Source of the DNA: Candidatus Nomurabacteria bacterium
GTDB taxonomy: Bacteria; Patescibacteriota; Saccharimonadia; Saccharimonadales; JAGQNJ01
NCBI GenBank assembly: GCA_023898625.1
Contig: CP060231.1
Span: 20,258-84,257, forward strand
Length of the DNA: 64,000 nucleotides
Direction of reading: 5' to 3'
Part shown: positions 659-49,590 of the stretch, piece by piece
How positions within the stretch are numbered: position 1 is the stretch's first letter
Layout: each line of letters starts with the position of its first letter
Translations under genes and position numbers: made by a program
Notes under the pieces: model-generated
The model's input: the letters and a program-made list of their open reading frames with translations, nothing else
Database searches by the model: none
Told to the model about the DNA's origin: nothing

Positions 659-3600
659 ATGAATAATCCATCTATTGACGCCAATATTATTCGACAAAAT
701 CGCCCAAAATCAACAAATCGCAAAGTTATTGTGTTGCTAGTCATTTTTCTGCTTACTTTAGGTATTTGTGCAGGTTATCTAACATACAAAAATTCACTAA
801 AATACAGGGAGCTTCAGGCAATTCAGAACAGCATGCAACAAGCACTAGACAATAACACAAACCTTCAAGAAAACGAACTCAATAAAATGGCTCAGGATAT
901 TCATAAACTGCGTCAAGAGCAAGCAGAATTTATCCCAAAGCAATTACAAGATCAATATGATCAAATTCTAAAGAAGCTCGAGCTTTTGTCTCACTCCAAT
1001 AATACCAATGTGGCATCTGTTGCTAGTAATCTACTATTGCAACTATCTAATCAGGCGGGTAGTGGTATATCTGTTGGAGGACCCAATAACACAAATATCT
1101 CAAACTCTGGTGTAATTTCTATAAATAATGCAACGGGTAATATATCTATTCAGGGCACTCCAAATCAAACTACAGTCACCCAAAACGGAAGTACAACCAC
1201 TATCGGTACCACACAAGATATTGCGCCATCCAGTAATCCAACCTTCTCAGGTTTACAAATTAGTGGCACTACAAACACTAATACCTTATCTATTAATTCT
1301 TCTGGCACGCAAAATGGTTATGCAATTTGTGATGCGTCAAATAACTGTGGTTATTCTGGTGCAGGCAGTTCGTTTGTGCAGGGTGGCAATAGCTTCGGAA
1401 ATCCAGCAAACATTGGCACAAACGACACGCAACCGTTAAATGTCGAGACTAATGGCGTTACGAGGCTTAGTATTGACGCAATTGGTAACTCAACCTTTAC
1501 GGGAAATGTTTCATCTAGTGGGACTATATCTGCAAATAATTTGAGCGGTGATGGTAGCGGGGTTACGAACGTAGATGCTACTGCGCTAAATGGCAATACC
1601 GCAGGGAATAGCAACGGACAGATAGCGATAAATAACGGCACAGTAAACACAAACTTGAATGCAGACCTGCTGGATGGACAATCTGGTAGCTACTACCAAA
1701 ACGCTTCGAATATTTCTTCGGGCACTCTTGCCGATGCTAGGTTGTCCGGCAATGTAACTCTGCAAGGCAATAGCTTCAATGGGGCTAATCAGTTAGTACA
1801 GTTGACGGGCGCAGGAGCATTGCCTGTACTCAATGGATCTGCGCTGACAAATATAAATGCCGTAACGCTTGCGGGACAATCTGGTAGTTACTACCAAAAC
1901 GCATCAAATATTAATACAGGTGCACTGTCAGATAGTCGACTGAGTAGCAATGTGCCGCTAAAAAATGCGATAAACACATTCACCAATACGAACAACTTTG
2001 CGGGGATTACATCTACGGGTATATTGCAGGGTGGTTATCAGGTTTGCGATGCCAGCAACAACTGTAACTATGCAACATCTGCGCAGTTTGCTAACGCTAT
2101 TTTGCAAGGTGGTAATAGCTTCGGCACTCAGATGACTATCGGAACAAATGACAATCAATCCCTAGCTATGAAAACCAATGGGTCAATAGCTCTAACCATT
2201 TTGCAAAACGGGGATACAAGCATCGGCACAAATTCCGATCTTGGTCAGCTAGGTGTGGAAAGTACAGCTAGTAACAAAATAACTCTTGTTGTTAAAAAGA
2301 GCGCTAGTCAGTCTGTAAGTATGCAAGAATGGCAAGCTAACAACGGCTCTACTTTAGTAAGGGTTGATAACTGGGGCTCAATTCAGGGCTTTGGTACAGG
2401 AGGCTTCATTGCTTATAACCAACTACAAGCAAGAGGAAATGCACAGCCATACATCACTCTAGGTAATGGCGGTTCAGGCAGTGCTGGTTATGAATGGGCA
2501 TTCACGTCTAATGGCAGGGTGTTTGAGCTGAGGGGAGATCATACTAATGCAAATCCTACGTGGCCAAGACTCTATATGTCGGTAGATAATGTAAATGGCA
2601 CATTAAGCAAATATTCCATTGATCCTACCGCGGTATCAATGATAATTCAAGGGGCGTCTGGGCAAACTGCAAACTTGCAAGAATGGAGGAACAGTAGTAA
2701 TGAGGTGGTTGCTTCGTTAAACTCTATTGGCAATACGCTAACACTAGGAAAAGTATCTACAACGGACCCAAGTTCAACAATAACGCTACGAGGTTCATAC
2801 AATAGTGGTTCAACGACCCTAACTATTAATAGCGGTGGGTCTGATGCAAGTATAATTAGTTCTGGTAGTAGCAATGCCCTAGATATAGGAACGAATAGCT
2901 TTCATGGCCTTATGTTTAGGGCTAGTGGCCAGAGGGTAGGTCAGATCAATTTGCAAGGCATGAGGATAGGTGGGGCTAGCGGTAATCCAGCGGGTCAACT
3001 AGATGTAAATAACCAATCTGCTTCGAGAGTAGGGGCGGTAATAAGAGGGTTTACGGGGCAAATAGCTAACTTGCAGGAATGGAGAAACTCATCAGGCACA
3101 AGTTTGTTGAGTGTTAGTGCAAGTGGTGTCTTGAATGCTCCCGGTCAACTAATAATGATGGAGGGTAATGGCGGCAATACCCGTATTGGCAGTGCAACGC
3201 AACATTTCTCTCATGACAATGGCAAGGGCACATTGCGGTCTACAGATACTGTTGCGTGGTTGCAGTTTACTACTTCTCAGGCTTTAGGAAATGGATTTAG
3301 ACTAGTAGGTTCCGACGGTGCTAGTGATGGAGATTTTGTTATGTACTCATCAGAAAATTTCTTTCAGCAGAACACTATTGAGCGCCTGAGGCTCGTCCAT
3401 GGGGGAGTGTCTGGAGGAGCACTGCAGGTGCGGGGTGTTTCTGGCCAAACGGCAAATTTACAAGAATGGATGTCGTCATCAGGGACAGTGCTTGCCAAGA
3501 TTGATGCATCTGGCAACTTGACCGTAAAGAATGCCACGGTAGAAGGTGCATACATAACATTTAGTAACAATATACGTGGTTACAATGTACCAATAACTGC

Positions 3601-6639: not shown

Positions 6640-7356
6640 TCAGCAGATTTTCGTGCCAACGTCCTTACCACTGACTACGGCTAGAATATTATTGGGCTTC
6701 ATTGCATCAAAAACTATTATTGGCATTTTATGTTCAAGCGCCAGACCCATGGCGGCTTTATCCATCACCTTAATGTTTATATCTTCAACGGCTTGTTGAA
6801 AGGATAGGTTATTAAACTTTTTTGCATCATTATTATTTGAAGGGTCTTTATCATAAACGCCATCGACCTTGCTGGCCTTAGCTACAATATCGCAACCAAG
6901 CTCAAGCCCAGTCAGTACCGCTGCTGTATCGTGAGTAGAATATGGACGACCAGTTCCACCGGCCACCAACAATATTCGACCAGCCTGCAAATGCTTTTCT
7001 GCCAACCTAAATGAAAAACTCTCAGCAAGTTGCTCAACATAAACATTACTTAAACACCGAGTTGGCAGTCCTTCTGCTTCAAAAATATCAGTTAGAGCCA
7101 TGGCATTCATCAAGCCAGATAGCATGCCCATTTGGTCTGCTGTTACTCTTTTTATATCGCTCTTTCCCGCAAGGGTTGCGCCACGAACCATATTTCCGCC
7201 ACCAACAATAATAACTATTTCAACACCAGTATCCTTAGCGGTGCGTAACTCTTTAGCTAAAAAACGAGCTACATCTGGATCAATACCAAAACCATGCTTG
7301 CCAGCCAATTGCTCACCCGAAAGTTTTAACAAAATCCGTTGATATTGACTACTCAT
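6640..7356 (-). CDS. pyrH: UMP kinase
   Basis: RILLKLSGEQLAG...IVIIVGGGNMVRG...LLVAGGTGRPYSTHDTAA...VDGVYDKDP, colinear with the PyrH family. Confidence 0.92.
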   Translation of the reverse strand: MSSQYQRILLKLSGEQLAGKHGFGIDPDVARFLAKELRTAKDTGVEIVIIVGGGNMVRGATLAGKSDIKRVTADQMGMLSGLMNAMALTDIFEAEGLPTRCLSNVYVEQLAESFSFRLAEKHLQAGRILLVAGGTGRPYSTHDTAAVLTGLELGCDIVAKASKVDGVYDKDPSNNNDAKKFNNLSFQQAVEDINIKVMDKAAMGLALEHKMPIIVFDAMKPNNILAVVSGKDVGTKIC

Positions 7357-7398: not shown

Positions 7399-8196
7399 AT
7401 GAAGTTATTCAGCTGGAACGTTAATGGCATCCGCGCAGTTATTCGCAAAGGGGAATTCGAAAAATTTATCAACACTTTTGATCCGGATATCCTCTGTTTG
7501 CAAGAAACCAAGGCGGAACAGGGACAAGCCGAGATTGATCTTCCTCAATACAAAGAATATTGGAATTCATCTCGCACCAAAAAGGGCTATAGTGGAACTG
7601 CTATTTTTACTAAACTAGAACCACTTTCGGTAGTTAATGACATACCCGAGCAGTTTGTTCAAGCCGGGGGGTTAAATGAAGATGACTATGGCCACAGCAA
7701 CGATGAGGGCAGAGTGATAACAGCAGAATTTGCAGATTATTACGTGGTTACCGCTTACACACCAAATGCCAAAGATAACCTATCACGCATTCCACTGCGT
7801 GAACAATGGGACAAAGCACTAACCCTATACTGTGCTGATTTGCAAAAAAACAAGCCCGTTATCTACTGCGGAGATATGAATGTTGCCCACACCGAAGAGG
7901 ACCTTGCCAACCCCAAGCCAAATGTTGGCAAAAAAGGCTTTACCGCCGAAGAGCGCACAGGCTTTGACAACTGGCTGTCCGCGGGCTTCGTCGATACTTT
8001 TCGTATCTTCACACAAGGCAACGGACATTACACCTGGTGGAGCCATTTTGCCAAAAGCCGTGAGCGCAACGTTGGCTGGCGCATCGATTACTTCCTGGTG
8101 TCTGAAGCCCTGAAACAAAAGGTTAAATCTGCAGAAATTCATGCTAATCAACTGGGTTCTGACCACTGCCCAATCAGTATAGAAATTGTTGACTAG
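7399..8196 (+). CDS. xth: Exodeoxyribonuclease III
   Basis: MKLFSWNVNGIRA...ILCLQETK...YCGDMNVAH...WRIDYFLVS...GSDHCPI, the ExoIII/AP-endonuclease motifs. Confidence 0.9.
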   Translation: MKLFSWNVNGIRAVIRKGEFEKFINTFDPDILCLQETKAEQGQAEIDLPQYKEYWNSSRTKKGYSGTAIFTKLEPLSVVNDIPEQFVQAGGLNEDDYGHSNDEGRVITAEFADYYVVTAYTPNAKDNLSRIPLREQWDKALTLYCADLQKNKPVIYCGDMNVAHTEEDLANPKPNVGKKGFTAEERTGFDNWLSAGFVDTFRIFTQGNGHYTWWSHFAKSRERNVGWRIDYFLVSEALKQKVKSAEIHANQLGSDHCPISIEIVD

Positions 8197-8233
8197 TTCA
8201 TGTGTCGAGCATACAATCAAGTTAAGGAGAAAA

Positions 8234-8902
8234 ATGACAAAAAGAAAACACAATAAACAATCTAAAATCAATATAAAAATAATCTTGCTTTTTATTTTAG
8301 GTATAATAGTGACGCTAGGCGTTATTGGACAAATTGTTTTTGATGCGTATTTATGGAATGTTGATAAATTAAATAGTGCATTCGTACTACGAACATCTTT
8401 TAAAGATGCAATTCTTGATGTGGAGGCAACTAGAAATTCCCTTATAGATAGACAAAAGATACCTGAAGCTAGGCTAATATTGCCCAGTGAAACTAATAAC
8501 GGACAAAATATCCGTTATGTCTATTATAGTAAAGATGAAGATCAGCCAGAAACAATAGATATTGGCACTGTCGAACTCACAAACGCAGGAATTATTTCTT
8601 TAAATGGACAGAACGAACACGAAGTTTTGGATAATGTACCGGAATCACAAGCCTGTGCCAGAGGGTTTCATATATATTTCGAGGATCCGAAAGTTCCAGA
8701 CTCAAGTTCGGATAAAAAAGTAGTTGGAGTTAAAAAGCTAGCAGATAATCGAGAAATATATCTGGTACGCGAAATGGATTGCGGGCGAAACCCTAAACTA
8801 ACTCAGTACAACAATTCCGAAGCTCCAAACTTTGACAGAACACCCCGATATCAAATGATGGACGAACTCGAAGAATATCTACTCCAAATCCAGAGCTACT
8901 AG
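8234..8902 (+). CDS. Hypothetical membrane-anchored protein
   Basis: The ORF is 8186-8902. I chose the start at 8234 (MTKRKHNK) because AAGGAG lies 7 nt upstream. One TM helix (IILLFILGIIVTLGVIGQIVF); no known domain. Confidence 0.5.
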   Translation: MTKRKHNKQSKINIKIILLFILGIIVTLGVIGQIVFDAYLWNVDKLNSAFVLRTSFKDAILDVEATRNSLIDRQKIPEARLILPSETNNGQNIRYVYYSKDEDQPETIDIGTVELTNAGIISLNGQNEHEVLDNVPESQACARGFHIYFEDPKVPDSSSDKKVVGVKKLADNREIYLVREMDCGRNPKLTQYNNSEAPNFDRTPRYQMMDELEEYLLQIQSY

Positions 8903-8932: not shown

Positions 8933-9697
8933 TCAAGTTGTATTAGCATTCTTAATTGCGCGATCGACAGAGTACTGTAAGCTTTCGTGCAAATCTGCAA
9001 GCAACACATCACTGTCCTGTCCGGTGTAGATAATTGGGTTGTCCACCCACATCTGCGGATGGCGCTTGTCCCCATCATAAGTAAACCCAATTGGCACTAC
9101 CCCCACCAACAAGTTTGACGCCACACCTCCAAGTACCGCGCATAATCCTGGCTTCAATTCCTGGACAACATCTGGCTGTTCTTTATTACGGGTTCCTTCT
9201 GGGAATATTGCCATGTGTTGACCATTATTTAATTTTTGAATAGAAGTCTGTAGCATTCTATCGGTAGCTTGCCTACGCAAATCAGCATCTTCTTCGCTGA
9301 CATCCTTTTTACGAAATGCCGGAATAGCGCCCATGACGTCTACTCCTCGTCGCAAGACGGGGCGCAATAACTTGCTTGGATGGTGAAATAGTATTTCTTT
9401 GGATTGAATAAACGTGTTGCCAACCATAGGTCGAAAAGTTTCTTCCCGTAGCGCCATAGAACTCACAACATACTGGTCATTATCCGATAAATGATTTAAT
9501 GCCACCACTAGTCGACCATCATTATTCAAAATATCTCTGGCGGTCTGTTGAGCACCTTCAGCGTATTCAACATTTGGGCGAAACATCAAAGACATGGCTT
9601 TGTGACCGATATAAGCCCCGACTTTAGGTTGCTCGTATTGAGCGTAATATTCATAGACTGCTTCGTGATTGCGTAAAGTTACTTCTGGCTTTTTCAT
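8933..9697 (-). CDS. Lysophospholipid (1-acyl-sn-glycerol-3-phosphate) acyltransferase family protein
   Basis: HX4D motif (NHLSDND) and FPEGTR motif (AIFPEGTRNK) in PlsC-family order. Confidence 0.7.
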   Translation of the reverse strand: MKKPEVTLRNHEAVYEYYAQYEQPKVGAYIGHKAMSLMFRPNVEYAEGAQQTARDILNNDGRLVVALNHLSDNDQYVVSSMALREETFRPMVGNTFIQSKEILFHHPSKLLRPVLRRGVDVMGAIPAFRKKDVSEEDADLRRQATDRMLQTSIQKLNNGQHMAIFPEGTRNKEQPDVVQELKPGLCAVLGGVASNLLVGVVPIGFTYDGDKRHPQMWVDNPIIYTGQDSDVLLADLHESLQYSVDRAIKNANTT

Positions 9698-9782
9698 AGC
9701 CTAAGTATATAACCAAATAATTAATATGCAATGAAACAAGAAAAATACAACACTTTGTAATACGATCTGTTACACTGTCAGT

Positions 9783-10493
9783 ATGGAGAAGTTTGCAGTG
9801 TTCGATATTGATGGAACCCTAATACGTTGGCAACTTTATCATGCTGTTGTTAATAGACTGGCCAAAGCTAAAGCACTAAGCGATAATGCTCAACACGAAC
9901 TAAAACAGGCAATGATGAGCTGGAAACGCAGAGAAAATGAAGATGCATTTAAAAACTATCAAAGTAAATTAGTAAAACTTTACGAACAGTCTCTACCTAA
10001 CATAAGCACATCGGTTTTTGACAAACTTATTACTGAAGTAATTAACGAATACAAAGATCAAACGTATATATTTACTAGAAACTTAATTCACCAATTGAAG
10101 TCCAAAGGCTATAAACTGTTCATTATCTCAGGATCCCACCAAGAACTTGTGGAACAAATAGGCAAATATTACAATTTTGATGACTATATTGGAGCAAAAT
10201 ATACCAGAGATAGCAATGGCTTTACTGGAGAGTCTTCGATACCAGCACTTAACAAAGCAAAGTCACTAGAACAACTGATCACCAAACACAAAGTAATCAC
10301 CAGAGATAGTATCGGAATCGGGGACACAAAAAGTGACATCTCAATGCTTGAGATGGTAGACCAACCAATTGCCTTTAATCCTGACAAACTACTCTTTAAT
10401 GTCGCCAAAGAAAGAGGGTGGCAAATTGTTATCGAAAGAAAAAATGTAATTTATAAACTGGATAAGAAAGATGGCGTCTATGTATTGGATTAA
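9783..10493 (+). CDS. HAD-IB family hydrolase (SerB-like)
   Basis: DxDGT motif (FDIDGTLI), SG motif (IISGSH) and a C-terminal GDTKSD acidic motif. Confidence 0.75.
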   Translation: MEKFAVFDIDGTLIRWQLYHAVVNRLAKAKALSDNAQHELKQAMMSWKRRENEDAFKNYQSKLVKLYEQSLPNISTSVFDKLITEVINEYKDQTYIFTRNLIHQLKSKGYKLFIISGSHQELVEQIGKYYNFDDYIGAKYTRDSNGFTGESSIPALNKAKSLEQLITKHKVITRDSIGIGDTKSDISMLEMVDQPIAFNPDKLLFNVAKERGWQIVIERKNVIYKLDKKDGVYVLD

Positions 10494-11256
10494 GCAAACT
10501 AAAGAGGCCCCATCATTTCCAGAACTCATCTGGAATAAGCCAGAAAATAAACTTCATGCTGGTAAATTGTTGATTATTGGGGGTAGCTTGCATGCTTTTA
10601 GCGCACCTTCGACCGCCTTTTCTAAGGCTACTTCAGCTGGAGCTGGGTCAATTAGGTTATTACTGCCGGTTTCAATTAAGAAAACTGTTGTTTCATTGTT
10701 GCCAGAAGCCGATTTCGCACCCGTAACCCCGAGTGGTAGCTTCTCTAAACTAGCATTGAGCCAATTCTTAGAACATAGCACTTGGGCAGATGGCGTGTTG
10801 CTTGCCGGAGATTTTGGAAGAAACAGCGAAACAACCATATTGCTAGAACGATTCATCCAAGAAACCACAAGTCTAGCTATCATAGTCGAGGATGCAGTTG
10901 ACAACCTGATGCATACCCCAAGTTTTGCAAACAACCCAAAAGTTGTTGCTATAACTAACTTTACTCAACTCCAAAAATTAGCCATGAAATTAAAATTCAA
11001 GACTGCCTTTACTTCTGGAATGTCTTTAAGTAGTTTGGCTGAAACTTTGCATGAATTTTCAGAGCAATATTCTATGGCAGTAGTGACAGTGTTTGAGAAT
11101 AATTACATTGTCTCTTATCAAGGACGTGTGTCATCGACACCAATTTCTAGCTCAACTAATACAGGTATAGCTATGGCATCTATATTAAGCGTGTGGGCTA
11201 TCCAAAACCCTAATAATCTTTTTGAGGCGTTGACCACTGTCATAACACAAAGTTGA
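10471..11256 (+). CDS. YjeF C-terminal / carbohydrate-kinase-like protein (divergent NAD(P)H-hydrate dehydratase family)
   Basis: HAGKLLIIGGSLHAFSAPSTAFSKATSAGAGSIRLL resembles the N-terminal signature of YjeF_C proteins. The C-terminal GxGD motif is degenerate. Confidence 0.45.
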   Translation: MASMYWIKQTKEAPSFPELIWNKPENKLHAGKLLIIGGSLHAFSAPSTAFSKATSAGAGSIRLLLPVSIKKTVVSLLPEADFAPVTPSGSFSKLALSQFLEHSTWADGVLLAGDFGRNSETTILLERFIQETTSLAIIVEDAVDNLMHTPSFANNPKVVAITNFTQLQKLAMKLKFKTAFTSGMSLSSLAETLHEFSEQYSMAVVTVFENNYIVSYQGRVSSTPISSSTNTGIAMASILSVWAIQNPNNLFEALTTVITQS

Positions 11257-11301
11257 TGACATACTTTACATTGTTGATTTTTCGTGGTTTAATATATTGT
11301 T

Positions 11302-12279
11302 ATGCAACGACGTGAACCAGCATACAGCAAGTTTAGGCAAGATTTATCTGATAGAAATGTTATAAATCTAAATCGCGTTCTCGAAGGATACGACGGCTTA
11401 GGGTGTGAATACATAACAAAAAGAGATGTTGACACGTACCAAGATCTCGTTGGTGGTAGCTCGGAAGCTGGCCTAGTAATAGCTGGGTCTGTTGCCCTAG
11501 AAATTGCCAGTAAGCCAGAAAATACTGAAGCTCAAAAACTTGAATGGCTAACAAATGCTAATGATAATTGGAGTAGCGTAATTGATAAAGGATCTAGACT
11601 GGGACACATATCAAATTTTGTTATAGAATCTGCAATGCAAAAATCAAGCCTACCGTCTTATATGTCACTTTTACTAAATAGTGAACTGCCGAACACCAAA
11701 GTGATGCAAAAATACTATGCAGATCTATGTTCGGTCGGTAACTGCATGTATGATAAGTTTCAAAATGACTACGCACGAAGAGAATCGGACACTTTCAACA
11801 GCAAACCAGAAGTTATCAAAAGAATTAGACTTGCCGGATTGATCGGAGAGCTTGCTGTTACCATGTTATTCCAACGTTTTGTAAGGAACGAGCTTGGAGA
11901 TAAAGAACAGGTTGCATTGCCTTCATTGTTTTCGCAAGATCGTGGCATAAACAGAAACAGGGGAAGTACAGAAGTTCGTGCTTGGGATGTTACAGTCTTT
12001 CAGCAATTTGATCATGATGATATCGAAACCCCATACCTTATTCAAGTAAAAACAACGAAAAATCATCCAAAAAAAGATAAGTTCCATTACACCAAGGACA
12101 TATCCATGCTTCATATAAAAGAAGACCTGGCAATAAATGACCAAGAAGAACGAAGAGGATTTTCGCCAATTCATATCATTGCTGATTTACTATCAGAGCA
12201 AGAAGGAAGTGATTCGCCATCAACTAAGACTAGACTTGATCAACGAACCGACAAGCTTCTGGATGTAATTAATGACTAG
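11302..12279 (+). CDS. Hypothetical protein with a possible PD-(D/E)xK nuclease-like core
   Basis: 325 aa. In the C-terminal half, GLIGELAV ... AWDVTVF ... YLIQVKTTK matches the E / D / (E/Q)xK spacing of restriction-endonuclease-fold proteins. The N-terminal ~190 aa are unassigned. Confidence 0.35.
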   Translation: MQRREPAYSKFRQDLSDRNVINLNRVLEGYDGLGCEYITKRDVDTYQDLVGGSSEAGLVIAGSVALEIASKPENTEAQKLEWLTNANDNWSSVIDKGSRLGHISNFVIESAMQKSSLPSYMSLLLNSELPNTKVMQKYYADLCSVGNCMYDKFQNDYARRESDTFNSKPEVIKRIRLAGLIGELAVTMLFQRFVRNELGDKEQVALPSLFSQDRGINRNRGSTEVRAWDVTVFQQFDHDDIETPYLIQVKTTKNHPKKDKFHYTKDISMLHIKEDLAINDQEERRGFSPIHIIADLLSEQEGSDSPSTKTRLDQRTDKLLDVIND

Positions 12280-34283: not shown

Positions 34284-34358
34284 TGGTGACCTCACGGGGA
34301 ATCGAACCCCGATTGCCAGGATGAGAACCTGGTGTCCTAACCGTTAGACGATGAGGCC
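34284..34358 (-). tRNA. tRNA-Glu (anticodon CUC), CCA encoded
   Basis: The reverse complement reads GGCCTCATCGTCTAACGGTTAGGACACCAGGTTCTCATCCTGGCAATCGGGGTTCGATTCCCCGTGAGGTCACCA, with anticodon loop TTCTCAT. Confidence 0.9.
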
Positions 34359-34486
34359 ATGATATAAATTGTAATATACTTGAGGTTCGATTGGAATCGA
34401 CCCACCTCTGGCGGGCCCGAAACTTCATTTTTGAAAACAAGTTTTCAAAAGAAGATTTCCTTGCAAATTGCCTCAGGCAATTTTCA

Positions 34487-34537
34487 CCCGATTGCCAGGA
34501 TGAGAACCTGGTGTCCTAACCGTTAGACGATGAGGCC
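34487..34537 (-). pseudogene. Truncated second copy of tRNA-Glu (5' ~51 nt only)
   Basis: Identical to positions 1-51 of the intact tRNA-Glu plus 2 nt of 5' flank. The T-arm 3' half and acceptor 3' strand are missing and replaced by unrelated hairpin-rich sequence. Confidence 0.8.
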
Positions 34538-45732: not shown

Positions 45733-45998
45733 CATATGTATGTAAGATACTTATGCTATAGTTATTGTTAGATAATTAAGTCTAAAAGAACAAACATATA
45801 AAAAGGAAAACCCATCATGGCAAGAACAACTAAAGTAGTGAATAAAAGAACTACTAGTAGTAAGAATAGTAATACAAGCAAGAGTAAAGGGTTCTTTGGT
45901 AAGAGTTTTGATTTAAAGAGTAGGAAGGTACAGTTCTTTGTAGTTATTCTTATTGTAGCCATACTTGGTGGGGGATACTTTACGTTGAAGAGTTTTGC
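45730..45998 (+). repeat. Leader-module repeat, copy 3 (right part; left part is 44436-44574)
   Basis: Identical to 20466-20734. Confidence 0.9.
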
Positions 45999-46995
45999 AT
46001 TTACGCCCTTAACGACTACTATCGATACATACAATGGGAAAATTGCTTTTGAGTCTACTACAGTACTCTCTACAAAGGCAAATCCGTGCATGACTACTGG
46101 TCAATATTTCGATGTCAAAAGAGGAATTCGACATGGTGTTGGTTCAGCAAGATATGAAGAAGAAATATTAACACGATTGACTCTACAAGATAATGGAAAT
46201 GTAGTTTTATACGTAAATAATGTCCCGGTTTGGCACACAGCTACTGCTGGATCGGACGGGATCAAATTTTGTGTGCAAACAGACGGCAATTTAGTGCTCT
46301 ATAACAACACTATGACGCCCGTATGGCACACCGAGACTGCAGGAATGAATACCTTAATAAAGACCGATGGCGTAGAACTAAAAATTCTTACAGGTGGAGA
46401 CGATAATGCAGATTATAGTGGAACAAGTGGCCTTGCTTTATCAGGAGTAGCCGATGGATCCTCGCCATATAGTGGCCAATACTGGACAACGATAAATAGA
46501 AATTCACTTACCTCTGTGCACGAATATTTCACCAAAAATCAGAAGCTAAATTCCTTGAACGGCCAATATACTGCTACGTTACAAAATAATGGAAATTTAA
46601 TTGTAGTGCGAAATACAGACAATAAAATAATTTATAGCACTAATACTTCAGGCTCAGGTGCGATTGCCTTAATCTCCTACAATGGCCACGGTGGGATTTC
46701 TCTATTAGGTAAATCCAGAAATGAGGTCTGGAATTCAGACTACGGCATGAATCAAGGCGATTCTGCACATCTATTGGTAATGCAGGATGATGGAAATCTG
46801 GTTGCCTACGGCTATAAGCTCAATGACAATACCCATACCCGATATCCACTATGGACTAGTAAAGACCAACCCCAACCACCGACACCCCAACCACCGACAC
46901 CCCAACCACCGACACCCCAACCACCATCTGCCAAAAATTCTACACCCCAACCGCCATCTGCCAAAAATTCTACACCCCCTCCACCAAAAAAATAG
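45817..46995 (+). CDS. Secreted tandem bulb-type (B-)lectin protein, conserved-leader family member D
   Basis: Identical 61-aa leader. QxDxNxVxY-type motifs are VQTDGNLVLY and MQDDGNLVAY (perfect) and LQDNGNVVLY and LQNNGNLIVV (near). The C-terminus has PPTPQ x3 and PQPPSAKNST x2 repeats ending PPPPKK. Confidence 0.8.
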   Translation: MARTTKVVNKRTTSSKNSNTSKSKGFFGKSFDLKSRKVQFFVVILIVAILGGGYFTLKSFAFTPLTTTIDTYNGKIAFESTTVLSTKANPCMTTGQYFDVKRGIRHGVGSARYEEEILTRLTLQDNGNVVLYVNNVPVWHTATAGSDGIKFCVQTDGNLVLYNNTMTPVWHTETAGMNTLIKTDGVELKILTGGDDNADYSGTSGLALSGVADGSSPYSGQYWTTINRNSLTSVHEYFTKNQKLNSLNGQYTATLQNNGNLIVVRNTDNKIIYSTNTSGSGAIALISYNGHGGISLLGKSRNEVWNSDYGMNQGDSAHLLVMQDDGNLVAYGYKLNDNTHTRYPLWTSKDQPQPPTPQPPTPQPPTPQPPSAKNSTPQPPSAKNSTPPPPKK

Positions 46996-47067: not shown

Positions 47068-47703
47068 ATGAGTTTGTTTCAAAAAAAGACAGTCGAGCAT
47101 AGCCTTAACTTTAGCTTAAAAGGCTCTAAGCACCTACTTATTGTTGGGCTAGGGAACATCGGCAAAGAATACGACACAACTCGCCATAACATAGGATTTG
47201 ATTGTATTGATGCGTTTAAAGAAACTCAAAGCGAATTCGAGCCTTGGCAAAATAAGAAAGCATTGTTCTGTCAAATGAGTAGCGGAACATTTGGGACAAC
47301 TAAAGTAACATTAATAAAACCATCTACACTCATGAATAATAGTGGTCAGAGCGTTCAAGCAGTGTCTGATTACTTTAAAATTCCTGCTAAAGATACATTT
47401 GTGGTACATGATGATCTAGATATCAACTTTGGTCAAATTCGCACCAGAGTAGGGGGAGGTAGCGCAGGGCACAACGGCATTAAGTCTATTATTTCACATA
47501 TTGGGGATGGCTATGGTCGAGTTAGAGTAGGTATTATGGGTGAAAAGCCAGAGCAAATGGACACTTCAGATTATGTGTTAGCAAAATTTAGTAATCTAGA
47601 GCAAAAAGATATAAGCAAACTGACTCGAGAAGTTTCGAGTATCTTGATCGAGTTAATCTACAGAGGCGAACTTTATCCAGAAACTAGAAATTTTATGTTA
47701 TAA
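47068..47703 (+). CDS. pth: Peptidyl-tRNA hydrolase
   Basis: LIVGLGNIGKEYDTTRHNIGF and HDDLD...GGSAGHNGIKS, Pth family motifs. Confidence 0.9.
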   Translation: MSLFQKKTVEHSLNFSLKGSKHLLIVGLGNIGKEYDTTRHNIGFDCIDAFKETQSEFEPWQNKKALFCQMSSGTFGTTKVTLIKPSTLMNNSGQSVQAVSDYFKIPAKDTFVVHDDLDINFGQIRTRVGGGSAGHNGIKSIISHIGDGYGRVRVGIMGEKPEQMDTSDYVLAKFSNLEQKDISKLTREVSSILIELIYRGELYPETRNFML

Positions 47704-48280
47704 GTTCAAGCCCTGGCTGTTTAATGTCAAGTATTAATAAACTCCTCTCGTCAGATCCGATTCCTAAATGAAAAACCTGTTTAAGGCTACGCTCGGAAAC
47801 GTTACTATGTAAATTTTGCCTGATAACTATCACATCTCCCTGACCATATGTTGTTAAGAACTTTGGGTATTCTGTAAACTCGCTAAAAGTATCATCATCT
47901 GCACCAAAAAAAGCAGAATTTCCATCAAAAGGTATTAAAGCGGATACCCCTGTTAGTGTAGATTGGTCTATATGCGAAATCGGTTTTGGGTCGTCACTAG
48001 TAAAAGGTGCGAGCGTTTCCGTACTTACATCCACATAAGTACGATCTTCAAAACGCGCAGAATCAAGCCTTAACACCTCAAATAACCCTCTTACTTCAGG
48101 AATATATTCTTGTAGTAGCATTAAGCTTAGAGGAGTACCATTATTTAACTTTTCCAGACTCTCATCGCTTATTACTTCACTAAATTTAACAACACAATTG
48201 ACTACACAACTTAATATTGCACTATCTGTAAATGTGTCATACTCTGACGCAAATTCAGCCTTATATACATCTTTTCGCAT
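47693..48280 (-). CDS. Hypothetical acidic protein
   Basis: 195-aa ORF with no TM helix and no recognisable motif. Its start lies ~20 nt downstream of the ncRNA terminator. Confidence 0.4.
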   Translation of the reverse strand: MRKDVYKAEFASEYDTFTDSAILSCVVNCVVKFSEVISDESLEKLNNGTPLSLMLLQEYIPEVRGLFEVLRLDSARFEDRTYVDVSTETLAPFTSDDPKPISHIDQSTLTGVSALIPFDGNSAFFGADDDTFSEFTEYPKFLTTYGQGDVIVIRQNLHSNVSERSLKQVFHLGIGSDERSLLILDIKQPGLELIT

Positions 48281-48302
48281 AGTAAGTAACTCTTCTTATA
48301 AC

Positions 48303-48668
48303 AAAAAACGGCCTACAGAGGGGGTGGGCACCGCTGTAAGCCGATTTCTGGACTCAAACACAAATCATATGCTTAAGTCTCAAAAAACACCCTTCAACCC
48401 ACCCCAGCGAAACATCAGCGTACAACTCCACTAGGTACCTGTGTCTCTTAGTTGCAAGCAACCAAGAACCGTTTAGGCTCACTTTGAAAAACGGGTTTAG
48501 TTAAAGGGGTTAGTCTGTTTTAGAGCGTTACCATAAGGTAAAGCTAAATAAGTGGAGGGTAACAACTTAACTAGCGCGCTCTAAAACAATCTAACGTAAT
48601 ATCTTGGATAACCAAGATGTTAGAATGGGGGTATAAGGTACGTAAAATCCTAAAACAGGACTTACGGG
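48303..48668 (-). ncRNA. Orphan structured RNA, ~365 nt, with RNase P RNA-like motifs (identity unresolved)
   Basis: Minus-strand promoter: TTGACA (48702-48697), 17-nt spacer, TAAAAT (48679-48674). Terminator: GGCUUACAG-15nt-CUGUAGGCC + U6 (48342-48303). The internal structure is dense, e.g. an 11-bp GUUUUAGAGCG/CGCUCUAAAAC helix (48587-48517) and UCUAAC-AUCUUGG-UUAU-CCAAGAU-..-GUUAGA. GUAAGUCC (48665-48658) and GGCUUAC (48342-48336) could form a P4-like helix with a bulged U. AUAUGAUUUG...CCAGAAAUCGGCUUAC resembles CR-IV/CR-V spacing. No P1-P3 equivalents were found. Confidence 0.5.
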
Positions 48669-48717
48669 TTGCTATTTTAGCAAAATTGTTTCATTATGTC
48701 AATACTATTTAACGAAT

Positions 48718-49590
48718 TTGTTTATTATGCAAAAAGATTATAAATACCATAAGCTCAATAGTTCAGAGTTGCCAGAGAAGTTTAACTCGATAGATCCGTT
48801 GCCAAACACAATATACTATTGTGGCGGAGATCTATTGACAAACCTAGAAAAGCCCACTGTTGCCATAGTTGGCAGTCGAAAACCTACAACCTACGGTAGA
48901 GAAGTTACCGAAATGTTTACACGTGCACTAAGTTCTAAAGGAATTGTCATAGTCAGTGGCTTAGCACTAGGAATTGATAGCATTGCCCATAAAACATGTG
49001 TTGAATCTGGTGGTCAAACTATTGCAGTTTTGCCATGTGGTCCTGGGTTAATTTACCCAAGTAGCCACCGATCACTAGCGCAACGGATTATAGAACTTAA
49101 CGGAAACCTGTTAACTGAATATCCAGAAAATTCACCAGCATACAAACAGAATTTTATAGCCAGAAATCGAATAATTAGTGGCCTAGCAGATATTGTTATC
49201 GTTACCGAAGCAAATGAACGTAGCGGAACATTGCATACTGCTAATTTTGCGCTTTCTCAAGGCAAAACAGTTATGGCGGTACCTGGACCAATAACAAGTC
49301 CGTATAGCAAAGGCACTAACAACCTAATTAAAGCAGGAGCTATTCCATTAACAGAACCTTCAGATATCTTTTTTAAATTAGGAATGCGTGAATCTAGACC
49401 ATCAGAAATCACTGCCAATAATCAAGAGGAATACACAATATTAACACTTCTATCTCAAGGGGTTCGTGATGGTCAAGAACTTCTAGACAAAAGCCATCTT
49501 GAACCACAAATATTTAATCAAACATTAACGATGTTAGAGATTAACGGAAAAATTAGGGCTTTAGGCAATAATCAGTGGACTAATCAGTAA
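48718..49590 (+). CDS. dprA: DNA processing/protecting protein DprA
   Basis: PTVAIVGSRKPTTYGREV...GLALGIDSIAHK...RNRIISGL...SGTLHTANFALSQGK, DprA Rossmann-like motifs. The start is uncertain (TTG 48718 or ATG 48727). Confidence 0.88.
   Translation: MFIMQKDYKYHKLNSSELPEKFNSIDPLPNTIYYCGGDLLTNLEKPTVAIVGSRKPTTYGREVTEMFTRALSSKGIVIVSGLALGIDSIAHKTCVESGGQTIAVLPCGPGLIYPSSHRSLAQRIIELNGNLLTEYPENSPAYKQNFIARNRIISGLADIVIVTEANERSGTLHTANFALSQGKTVMAVPGPITSPYSKGTNNLIKAGAIPLTEPSDIFFKLGMRESRPSEITANNQEEYTILTLLSQGVRDGQELLDKSHLEPQIFNQTLTMLEINGKIRALGNNQWTNQ

Follow-up and report, generated by a model that had tools for sequence, protein, structure and literature searches.

The DNA analysed here is a 64,000-nt stretch of contig CP060231.1 (the window, in whose coordinates all positions are given unless a locus is named), and its subject is an RNA gene in the spacer between dprA and an open reading frame (ORF) for a protein of 195 amino acids. 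The ORF (47693-48280, minus strand) and dprA (48718-49590, plus strand) are separated by 437 bp, in agreement with the gap of about 440 bp given in the original prediction for this DNA. The 195-residue protein has no Pfam domain. The neighbours of the RNA gene are pth, encoding peptidyl-tRNA hydrolase (47068-47703, plus strand), and the genes for DprA and topoisomerase I. Protein relatives of DprA, at 96-44% identity, all belong to genomes of Saccharibacteria (TM7), a lineage of the candidate phyla radiation (CPR). We conclude that the spacer probably contains the gene for a stand-alone structured noncoding RNA that acts in trans and represents a new Saccharibacteria family. The original prediction had described a minus-strand promoter, a structured RNA of ~365 nt and a terminator, and this physical description proved right: promoter, fold, terminator, an 11-bp helix and the strand all stand, whereas the RNase P motifs read into the same sequence do not.

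The RNA extends over 48303..48669 on the minus strand (~365 nt), with its 5' end at 48669 +/- 3, as placed from the promoter, and its 3' end in a U-run. The promoter (48674..48702, minus strand) consists of a -35 box TTGACA (48702-48697), a 17-nt spacer and a TG-extended -10 box TAAAAT (48679-48674). It had been called near-consensus, and indeed it has 11/12 consensus matches in addition to the TG extension. A -35/-10 pair was present in 104/104 distinct upstream regions of the RNA family described below, among them 84 with TTGACA, 15 with TTGACT, 91 with a 17-nt spacer and 97 with the TG extension. An inverted repeat TTGC-N7-GCAA (TTGCTAAAATAGCAA, 48669-48683, minus strand), kept across the family, covers the -10 box and the start site (+1). 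A distance of 16 nt separates the dprA start codon from the -35 box of the RNA promoter, and the repeat might act as a common operator for the RNA gene and the divergent dprA.

At the 3' end, a 10-bp stem (48343-48334 with 48318-48309, including one U-G pair) is followed by the six U residues of an intrinsic terminator (48303-48308, minus strand). The hairpin and its U6 had been foreseen, with the stem taken for 9 bp. A terminator scan passed over this hairpin because its loop exceeds the 8-nt limit of the scan. Across the family, at least five U residues were found among the 10 nt after the 3' stem in 95 of 97 members. With correctly spaced sigma-70 promoter boxes and a GC-rich hairpin plus U-run, these signals show an independent gene, the RNA of which is predicted to start from this near-consensus promoter and to terminate at the hairpin and U-run. 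The 195-residue ORF starts 22 nt beyond the U-run on the same strand. A 370-nt stretch across the gene folds with an energy of -131.8 kcal/mol, compared with -90.5 +/- 5.9 for shuffled versions (z = -7.06), and 0/100 shuffles folded as well.

Conservation and fold of the RNA

The family set was assembled by nhmmer with the window RNA, followed by a profile hidden Markov model (HMM) made from those matches. The nhmmer search gave matches in 42 loci gathered through DprA relatives. The family HMM matched every Saccharibacteria dprA locus that includes upstream DNA and had no match in 18/18 loci from other phyla. Public metagenomes were scanned for the hairpin-loop pattern of the RNA, and the family was present in 92 of the 120 loci obtained in this way. 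As far as seen in these sequences, the family appears restricted to Saccharibacteria (class Saccharimonadia, CPR/Patescibacteria). Nearly all loci share the gene order pth (plus), RNA (opposite strand), dprA and topA. Among the exceptions (loci are denoted by L and a number), the RNA lies beside topA without dprA in L130, L158 and L178, and away from both genes in L219 and L013. The 99 distinct full-length copies have an estimated median length of 396 nt (range 318-660 nt); when these sequences were aligned to the profile, 70 positions were conserved at >=97% and 114 at >=90%.

Homologues with compensatory changes in several helices make this a conserved structured RNA family, and controls by shuffling and sliding were negative for covariation. 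The alternative of a new RNA class, also offered in the original prediction, was thus borne out by a conserved, syntenic and covarying family that is not in Rfam 15. Orientation was likewise settled by the family as a whole. G-U pairs exceed A-C combinations by 29 to 2 in the 3' hairpin and by 99 to 15 in the other helices, and therefore the functional strand is the minus strand of the window, just as had been argued from a single G-U pair in the terminator stem. Folding and covariation together show a predicted core made up of a 5' hairpin, a C-rich linker, a long helix with a UGUUACCCUCC loop, a long-range helix and a 3' hairpin with an invariant top. Its parts, all on the minus strand, are described here from the 5' end.

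The 5' hairpin H1, CGUAAGUCCUG-UUU-UAGGAUUUUACG (48641..48666), includes the string GUAAGUCC that had been taken for an RNase P motif. Folding plain MAFFT alignments of H1 with RNAalifold gave 0 pairs, with bulges shifting the register, and H1 was assessed by per-sequence folds in place of alignment folding. By this measure all members form a hairpin at this site (median 10 bp), and 86 different sequences were counted among 89; alternative stems include GUAAGCAUGA/CCAUGCUUGC and GUAAUCCACA/UGUGGAUUAC. H1 is followed by the conserved single-stranded C-rich linker UACCUUAUACCCCCA (48626..48640), for which no pairing partner was found. H2 (48590..48624) consists of UCUAAC, a variable hairpin and GUUAGA. 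An alternative partner of GUUAG is CUAAC at 48513-48509; L013 and L064, which have AUUAG/CUAAU without the upstream strand, favour this downstream partner, and L126 favours the upstream one.

In the H3 domain (48516..48589), the helix UUGUUUUAGAGCG/CGCUCUAAAACAG surrounds two hairpins and shows covariation. The 11-bp stem GUUUUAGAGCG/CGCUCUAAAAC, already noticed in the window alone, is real: it covaries and measures 11-13 bp across the family. H3 and its GUUAG/CUAAC extension (18 pairs) together have 94.2% of cells paired and 10 pairs changed on both sides. For the composite of H3, extension and long-range helix, aligned for 54 sequences that had been pre-filtered for register, 96.1% of cells were paired and 13 pairs had changed on both sides; 0/500 shuffles reached the observed values, and slid controls stayed at <=59.5% paired. 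The inner H3 hairpin bears the invariant 11-nt apical loop UGUUACCCUCC (48554..48564) on a closing stem AAGU/ACUU. ACCCUCC was found in all members listed, on closing stems that covary (CGAGU/ACUCG, CUAGU/ACUAG, AAGA/UCUU). The second hairpin, UUACC-UUAU-GGUAA (48529..48542), is short and variable, and other members have at this site a domain of up to ~120 nt with a conserved UAGUAUA...GCAAUUGCUUAAGCUA motif.

The 5' strand of the long-range helix, CCCUUUAAC (48500..48508), pairs with GUUGAAGGG in 99.8% of cells. Within this helix, pair 54/64 occurs as C-G in 43 sequences, G-C in 9 and A-U in 2, and a U-G pair is kept in 47/54. The helix closes a variable multi-hairpin 3' domain (48406..48499), where a covariation scan recovered a GUGAG/UUCGC helix. 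A T-loop-like hairpin, CCCR-UUCAAYG-UGGG, was considered as a core feature and rejected, as it is present in 14/99 members only. Beyond this domain lies the G-rich strand GGGGUGGGUUGAAGGG (48390..48405). Its 3' half (48398-48390) enters the long-range helix, and its 5' half, GGGGUGGG (48405-48398), is complementary to CCCACCCC in the loop of the 3' hairpin. This complementarity between an internal strand and the terminator loop had been noted before, and both of its strands turned out to be near-invariant. An optional hairpin containing AUAUGAUUUG (48351..48382) is missing in about half of 22 aligned members.

The 3' hairpin (48309..48343) is the sole match to its motif in the window. Its 10-bp stem carries an invariant apical part, CGGUGCCCACCCCCU (48333-48319). 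Among 77 distinct sequences, 94.4% of stem cells are paired and 11/12 pairs show both-side changes, with 224 cells changed on both sides; 0/500 shuffles were as good, and slid controls reached <=53%. The divergent members L013, L064, L021 and L033 reveal that the apparent 15-nt loop in fact consists of a true apical loop of 9 nt, UGCCCACCC (48330-48322), on top of a 4-bp extension that includes a C-U mismatch. The extension pairs vary as A-U/A-U, U-A/G-U and C-G/G-U.

Insertions of 100-300 nt occur at several helix tips across the members, as would be typical of old functional RNAs. L014 and L103 have ~300 nt inserted before the long-range helix, L017 has ~200 nt inside H3, the segment extracted from L010 measures 727 nt, and H2 is extended in L011. 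These large, member-specific insertions fold well at differing peripheral positions, and the core blocks are intact. In L021, L013 and L064 the family seems to reach its most reduced and divergent form.

Copies of the 3' hairpin on viral contigs

The 17-nt top of the 3' hairpin, GCGGUGCCCACCCCCUC, was also found on 40 viral contigs from IMG/VR (L187-L226) and ~10 further metagenome contigs (L075, L085, L098, L123, L128, L132, L133, L136, L163 and L173). On about 45 of these contigs it tops unrelated stems of 7-12 bp, whereas chance matches to GCGGUGCCCACCCCCUC in GC-rich coding DNA have no stem. Examples lie at 2868-2885 (+) in L190, 8009-8026 (-) in L221 and 7758-7775 (+) in L216. In the loci compared, the phage hairpin is co-oriented with the flanking ORFs. 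It is situated between the portal gene with a small ORF and the scaffold/major-head genes (L190, L198, L199, L203, L210), upstream of a terminase gene (L221) or near RecT genes (L085, L219), and it serves as the terminator of small RNAs with sigma-70-like promoters in L216, L200 and L226. Partners in cis of the form GGGUGG/GGUGGG were no more frequent than expected within 400 nt of the phage hairpins (5 observed versus 4.9 expected). The surrounding sequence showed neither a cleavage site nor a conserved flank, and a search of cultured phages for the hairpin returned only chance 16-17-mers. Reading the phage hairpins as attP sites was rejected for most of them on the basis of their gene positions and of stems unlike the host stems.

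One contig connects the two sets. L219, a 38-kb IMG/VR contig, carries at its end a full-length member of the RNA family (7963-8378, +), beside genes for a RecT-like protein, an exonuclease-FtsK and a DNA methyltransferase and adjoining neither dprA nor pth; a second copy of the hairpin (6863-6878, -) is located 1.1 kb away on the other strand. L219 may be either a prophage beside the RNA gene or a phage-borne copy. Since it has a full-length family member, at least some of the hairpin elements belong to Saccharibacteria. We infer that the hairpin shared with phages is a portable RNA module, recognised by a lineage-specific protein or by the RNA's own G-strand.

Two further observations concern these loci. 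In L027, a degenerate copy of the loop and 3' arm, UGAUGCCCACCCCCUCCGGAGA (2478-2493, -), lies ~50 nt downstream of the 3' hairpin (2527-2542); it resembles a partial duplication from an element that inserted into the 3' terminus of the RNA gene, a process familiar from tRNA and transfer-messenger RNA (tmRNA) genes. The hairpin-bearing phage contig L191 contains an array of 16 tRNA genes (9128-12020, +) and a match of 75 nt and 53 bits to the tmRNA model that looks like the tRNA-like domain only.

Comparison with known RNA families

No Rfam 15 family matched the RNA in the window or in 35 distinct homologous loci, and for 18 phage or hairpin-only loci Rfam offered no family for the hairpin. 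The models for 6S, signal recognition particle (SRP), raiA, OLE, ROOL, GOLLD and HEARO RNAs gave no match to the RNA, and a description of it was not found in a literature search. With 6S RNA (RF00013) the difference extends to the fold, which is multi-branched with a long-range helix, unlike a rod with a central bubble; judged by sequence, functional mimicry of a promoter in the 6S manner is still conceivable.

Among known RNAs, raiA, OLE, ROOL and GOLLD are close in kind. Like them, the Saccharibacteria RNA is stand-alone, apparently single-copy, conserved, multi-helix and pseudoknot-like, and it has many invariant nucleotides; no model match joins it to them, and the conserved sequences differ. 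The likeness to raiA RNA goes further. The latter lies next to the competence gene comFC, and at one position its members differ, some with a small hairpin and others with a large domain that contains a conserved motif (PMC10861870); correspondingly, our RNA lies beside the competence gene dprA and has a site that holds a small hairpin in some members and a large motif-bearing domain in others. In contrast to raiA, which occurs in Bacillota or Actinomycetota, this RNA belongs to the phylum Saccharibacteria, and it always has its own terminator hairpin, which raiA RNAs typically do not. The raiA model, the consensus of which has helices P1-P8 and two pseudoknots, gave no match at E<=10 for either the window RNA or the large-domain member L028.

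The tmRNA (ssrA) resembles our RNA in size, in its wealth of pseudoknots, in the proximity of a translation quality-control gene (pth here) and as a possible integration target, given the degenerate 3'-end copy in L027. The Saccharibacteria RNA differs in having neither a tRNA-like domain formed by its ends nor a conserved tag reading frame. ARAGORN reported no tmRNA in the window (only 3 tRNAs), and RF00023 gave no match. Small RNAs (sRNAs) that depend on chaperones, such as those of the Hfq and ProQ/FinO types, RocR with RocC and phage sRNAs, likewise place a module of 3' hairpin and U-tail on unrelated host and phage transcripts. Here, however, the module is set by an invariant 17-nt hairpin top and not by shape and U-tail alone, and the remainder of the RNA greatly exceeds a typical sRNA in size and structure.

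Some features met during these searches are separate from the RNA. A tRNA-like match in the window (34468-34537, -; 27.9 bits against a gathering score of 29 bits) lies 110 nt from tRNA-Glu (34284-34358); ARAGORN did not call it, and it may be a degenerate or unusual tRNA. In L007, a locus in a Patescibacteria metagenome-assembled genome, a cyclic-di-GMP-II riboswitch aptamer (48-130, +; 54 bits, just over the gathering score) is found ~3 kb from dprA. Four near-identical segments of the window, at ~20706, 21447, 40334 and 45970 (+), encode an N-terminal hydrophobic stretch ...VAILGGGYFTLKSFA... and identify a family of paralogous proteins, secreted or membrane-bound. In one ORF of this family (45817-46995), a D-mannose-binding lectin domain is accompanied by a C-terminal PQPPT repeat.

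A trans-acting RNA and its alternatives

We propose that the G-rich strand, besides its part in the long-range helix, would also pair with the loop of the 3' hairpin (GGGUGGG/CCCACCC). Two helices would thereby stack into a single core, and the terminator hairpin would be drawn into the fold. The RNA would act in trans, most probably as the RNA component of a ribonucleoprotein (RNP) or as a binder of another RNA, with the invariant single-stranded C-rich elements ACCCCC, ACCCUCC and CCCACCC as its recognition surfaces. The 3' hairpin would double as a terminator and as a portable recognition or stability module, and phages of the same hosts may have copied this module onto their own transcripts.

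Several points weigh against this proposal. The 5' end of the RNA is a prediction from the promoter position, and its single-copy status is deduced from one match per locus in the loci examined. The metagenome members were collected by the exact loop pattern, and the apparent invariance of the loop is inflated as a result; in the 42 dprA-derived members, chosen without that pattern, the loop is retained with at most 1-2 changes. Both strands of the GGGGUGGG/CCCACCCC pairing are almost invariant, so covariation could not be used to test it, and L013 does not have the GGUGGG run required for a pseudoknot between loop and G-strand. As a target in trans for the C-rich loops, the window contains only the RNA's own G-strand. 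Use of Shine-Dalgarno sequences in the window is weak, with AGGA upstream of 14/48 genes and GGAGG upstream of 1/48, and hence a role for the CCUCC loop as an anti-Shine-Dalgarno mimic is unsupported. When rRNA genes were sought in the fetched loci for complementarity to the loops, none were found.

The proposal can be taken further. The RNA might be the core of a Saccharibacteria-wide ribozyme or RNP that recognises the UGCCCACCC tag through its G-strand or a dedicated protein, and phages might tag late-gene transcripts and small RNAs in order to plug into this machinery or to escape it. We regard this extended version as quite unlikely.

If the RNA acted instead as a base-pairing or sequestering riboregulator, its C-rich loops ACCCCC, ACCCUCC and CCCACCC would bind G-rich sequences (ribosome-binding sites, for instance) or would titrate a protein that binds C-rich RNA, in the manner of the C-rich-loop sRNAs RsaE/RoxS or of CsrB/RsmZ decoys. 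Three invariant single-stranded C-rich elements that are alike in form would suit such a regulator. CCUCC is the anti-Shine-Dalgarno core, and the 3' hairpin behaves as a portable module, like chaperone-binding terminators. The scarcity of G-rich targets and of GGAGG in the window speaks against it, as do ~400 nt of conserved, tertiary-looking architecture, far beyond what a base-pairing sRNA needs. This explanation is unlikely.

The back-to-back layout with dprA, kept in nearly all loci, raises the question of whether the gene works by antisense or transcriptional interference on the plus-strand pth...dprA-topA, with the RNA promoter gating the competence gene dprA. Consistent with this idea, no promoter-like sequence that could serve dprA was found on the plus strand of the RNA gene, and the conserved TTGC-N7-GCAA over the -10 box is a possible operator. 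Selection has nevertheless acted on the RNA's own fold, as seen from the covariation and from G-U pairs far in excess of A-C, and interference would have no need of 70 near-invariant positions in loops. Moreover, members occur at topA without dprA (L130, L158, L178) or away from both genes (L219, L013). We consider interference improbable. Equally improbable is a novel ribozyme or RNA-only assembly, recognising transcripts tagged with the UGCCCACCC loop or forming a homo-oligomer via the quasi-palindromic loop GGUGCCCACC. Its conservation and pseudoknot-like architecture are on a par with those of catalytic or ornate RNAs, the loop tag is common to phage transcripts that have no partner in cis, and the G-strand is complementary to that tag. 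Yet this idea is pure inference; in cis, the RNA's own loop should occupy the G-strand, and the flanks of the phage hairpins showed neither a cleavage site nor conservation.

A strongly diverged or reduced RNase P RNA, as envisaged in the original prediction, would have GUAAGUCC and GGCUUAC as its P4 and strings resembling conserved regions IV and V (CR-IV, CR-V) near its 3' end. The general likeness is considerable. RNase P RNA (RF00010/RF00011) shares with our RNA a length of ~350-450 nt, a strong promoter of its own, one gene per locus, and a conserved core with variable peripheral helices and at least one long-range helix, and thus the size and complexity fit. What is different is that the Saccharibacteria RNA has no covariance model (CM) match, no CR-I or CR-V and no P1-P4 topology. 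RNase P models gave no match in the window at the gathering score and none at E<=5, none at E<=10 on 48200-48800 (600 nt) or in homologues, and none in the scanned homologous loci; the wider Rfam check advised at the outset, covering RNase P, tmRNA and other models, was run and matched no family to the RNA. The supposed hallmarks are strings of this window and its nearest relatives, present in 1-12 of 99 members: GUAAGUCC in 10/99, GGCUUAC in 8/99, AUAUGAUUUG in 1/99, CCAGAAAUCGGCUUACAG in 2/99, GGUAACGC in 2/99 and ACAGACUAACC in 12/99. The presumed CR-IV string AUAUGAUUUG sits in the optional hairpin that many members lack.

The P4-like helix dissolves into two local hairpins. Its 5' strand belongs to H1, as the 5' arm of a stem that differs between species, and its 3' strand forms the 5' arm of the 3' hairpin; each covaries with the 3' arm of its own hairpin. 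Complementarity of >=7 nt between the two occurs in 4/89 sequences, the window and its three closest relatives only. CR-I (GGAAAGUCC) was not found as a 5' strand of P4, nor CR-V (ACAGAANNNGGCUUA) in long-range pairing with it; instead of a P1 formed by the 5' and 3' ends, the RNA ends are two separate hairpins, and P2 and P3 were likewise not found. Even organellar RNase P RNAs and those of archaeal type T retain GGAAAGUCC and ACAGAANNNGGCUUA. A scan of 1.5 Mb of fetched loci for the canonical motifs (GGAAAGTCC plus ACAGAAN3-4GGCTTA) produced chance hits inside genes only. With no CM match, strings that are not conserved and P4 strands that pair locally, a reduced or atypical RNase P RNA is not supported.

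A small residual weight is left to RNase P because CPR RNase P RNAs are diverged, because the annotation of one complete genome reports few noncoding RNAs, and because the search covered the fetched loci only. No RNase P RNA was matched in the 64-kb window or in the flanks of up to ~10 kb in relatives. From the annotation count we presume that one of rnpB, ffs and ssrA goes undetected in Nanosynbacter. The count itself is that of a complete Nanosynbacter genome, for which the Prokaryotic Genome Annotation Pipeline (PGAP) gives only 2 noncoding RNAs (PMC8830319), and CPR RNase P RNAs often score below Rfam cut-offs (PMC8172020). The same study, however, recovered RF00010-like RNAs from its Saccharimonadia genomes (PMC8172020). 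An RNase P identity is therefore very improbable.

Least credible of all is a role in cis for the 195-residue gene, as a long leader, attenuator or riboswitch: the ORF follows the U-run by 22 nt on the same strand, and hairpin plus U-run could attenuate, but a homologue is found 3' of the RNA in only four other loci (L002, L003, L006, L175), the convergent pth lies beyond the 3' end in most loci and abuts it in several (for example L004, L025 and L039), no downstream gene is conserved across loci, the protein has no Pfam domain, and the RNA is conserved far more widely than the gene; the leader was rejected for these reasons.

In conclusion, the gene for a stand-alone, trans-acting RNA is the reading that we prefer. 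It is rare for large bacterial RNAs to combine long-range structure with many invariant nucleotides, and size, conservation and architecture put this one among the few large orphan bacterial RNAs. Those large RNAs that have been solved serve nearly all in basic functions, as in the ribosome, RNase P, tmRNA, SRP and IscB guide RNAs. Saccharibacteria live as ultra-small episymbionts, and their reduced genomes encode few ribosome-biogenesis factors; as the RNA was present in every Saccharibacteria locus inspected, its gene has been retained despite strong reduction. Genuine RNase P RNAs are difficult to detect in CPR genomes, the annotation of which could be misled by the RNase P-like strings of this RNA. 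Some Saccharibacteria can now be cultivated and manipulated genetically. Our RNA provides a testable handle on CPR biology, and the phage hairpin tag offers a built-in clue and an experimental entry point.

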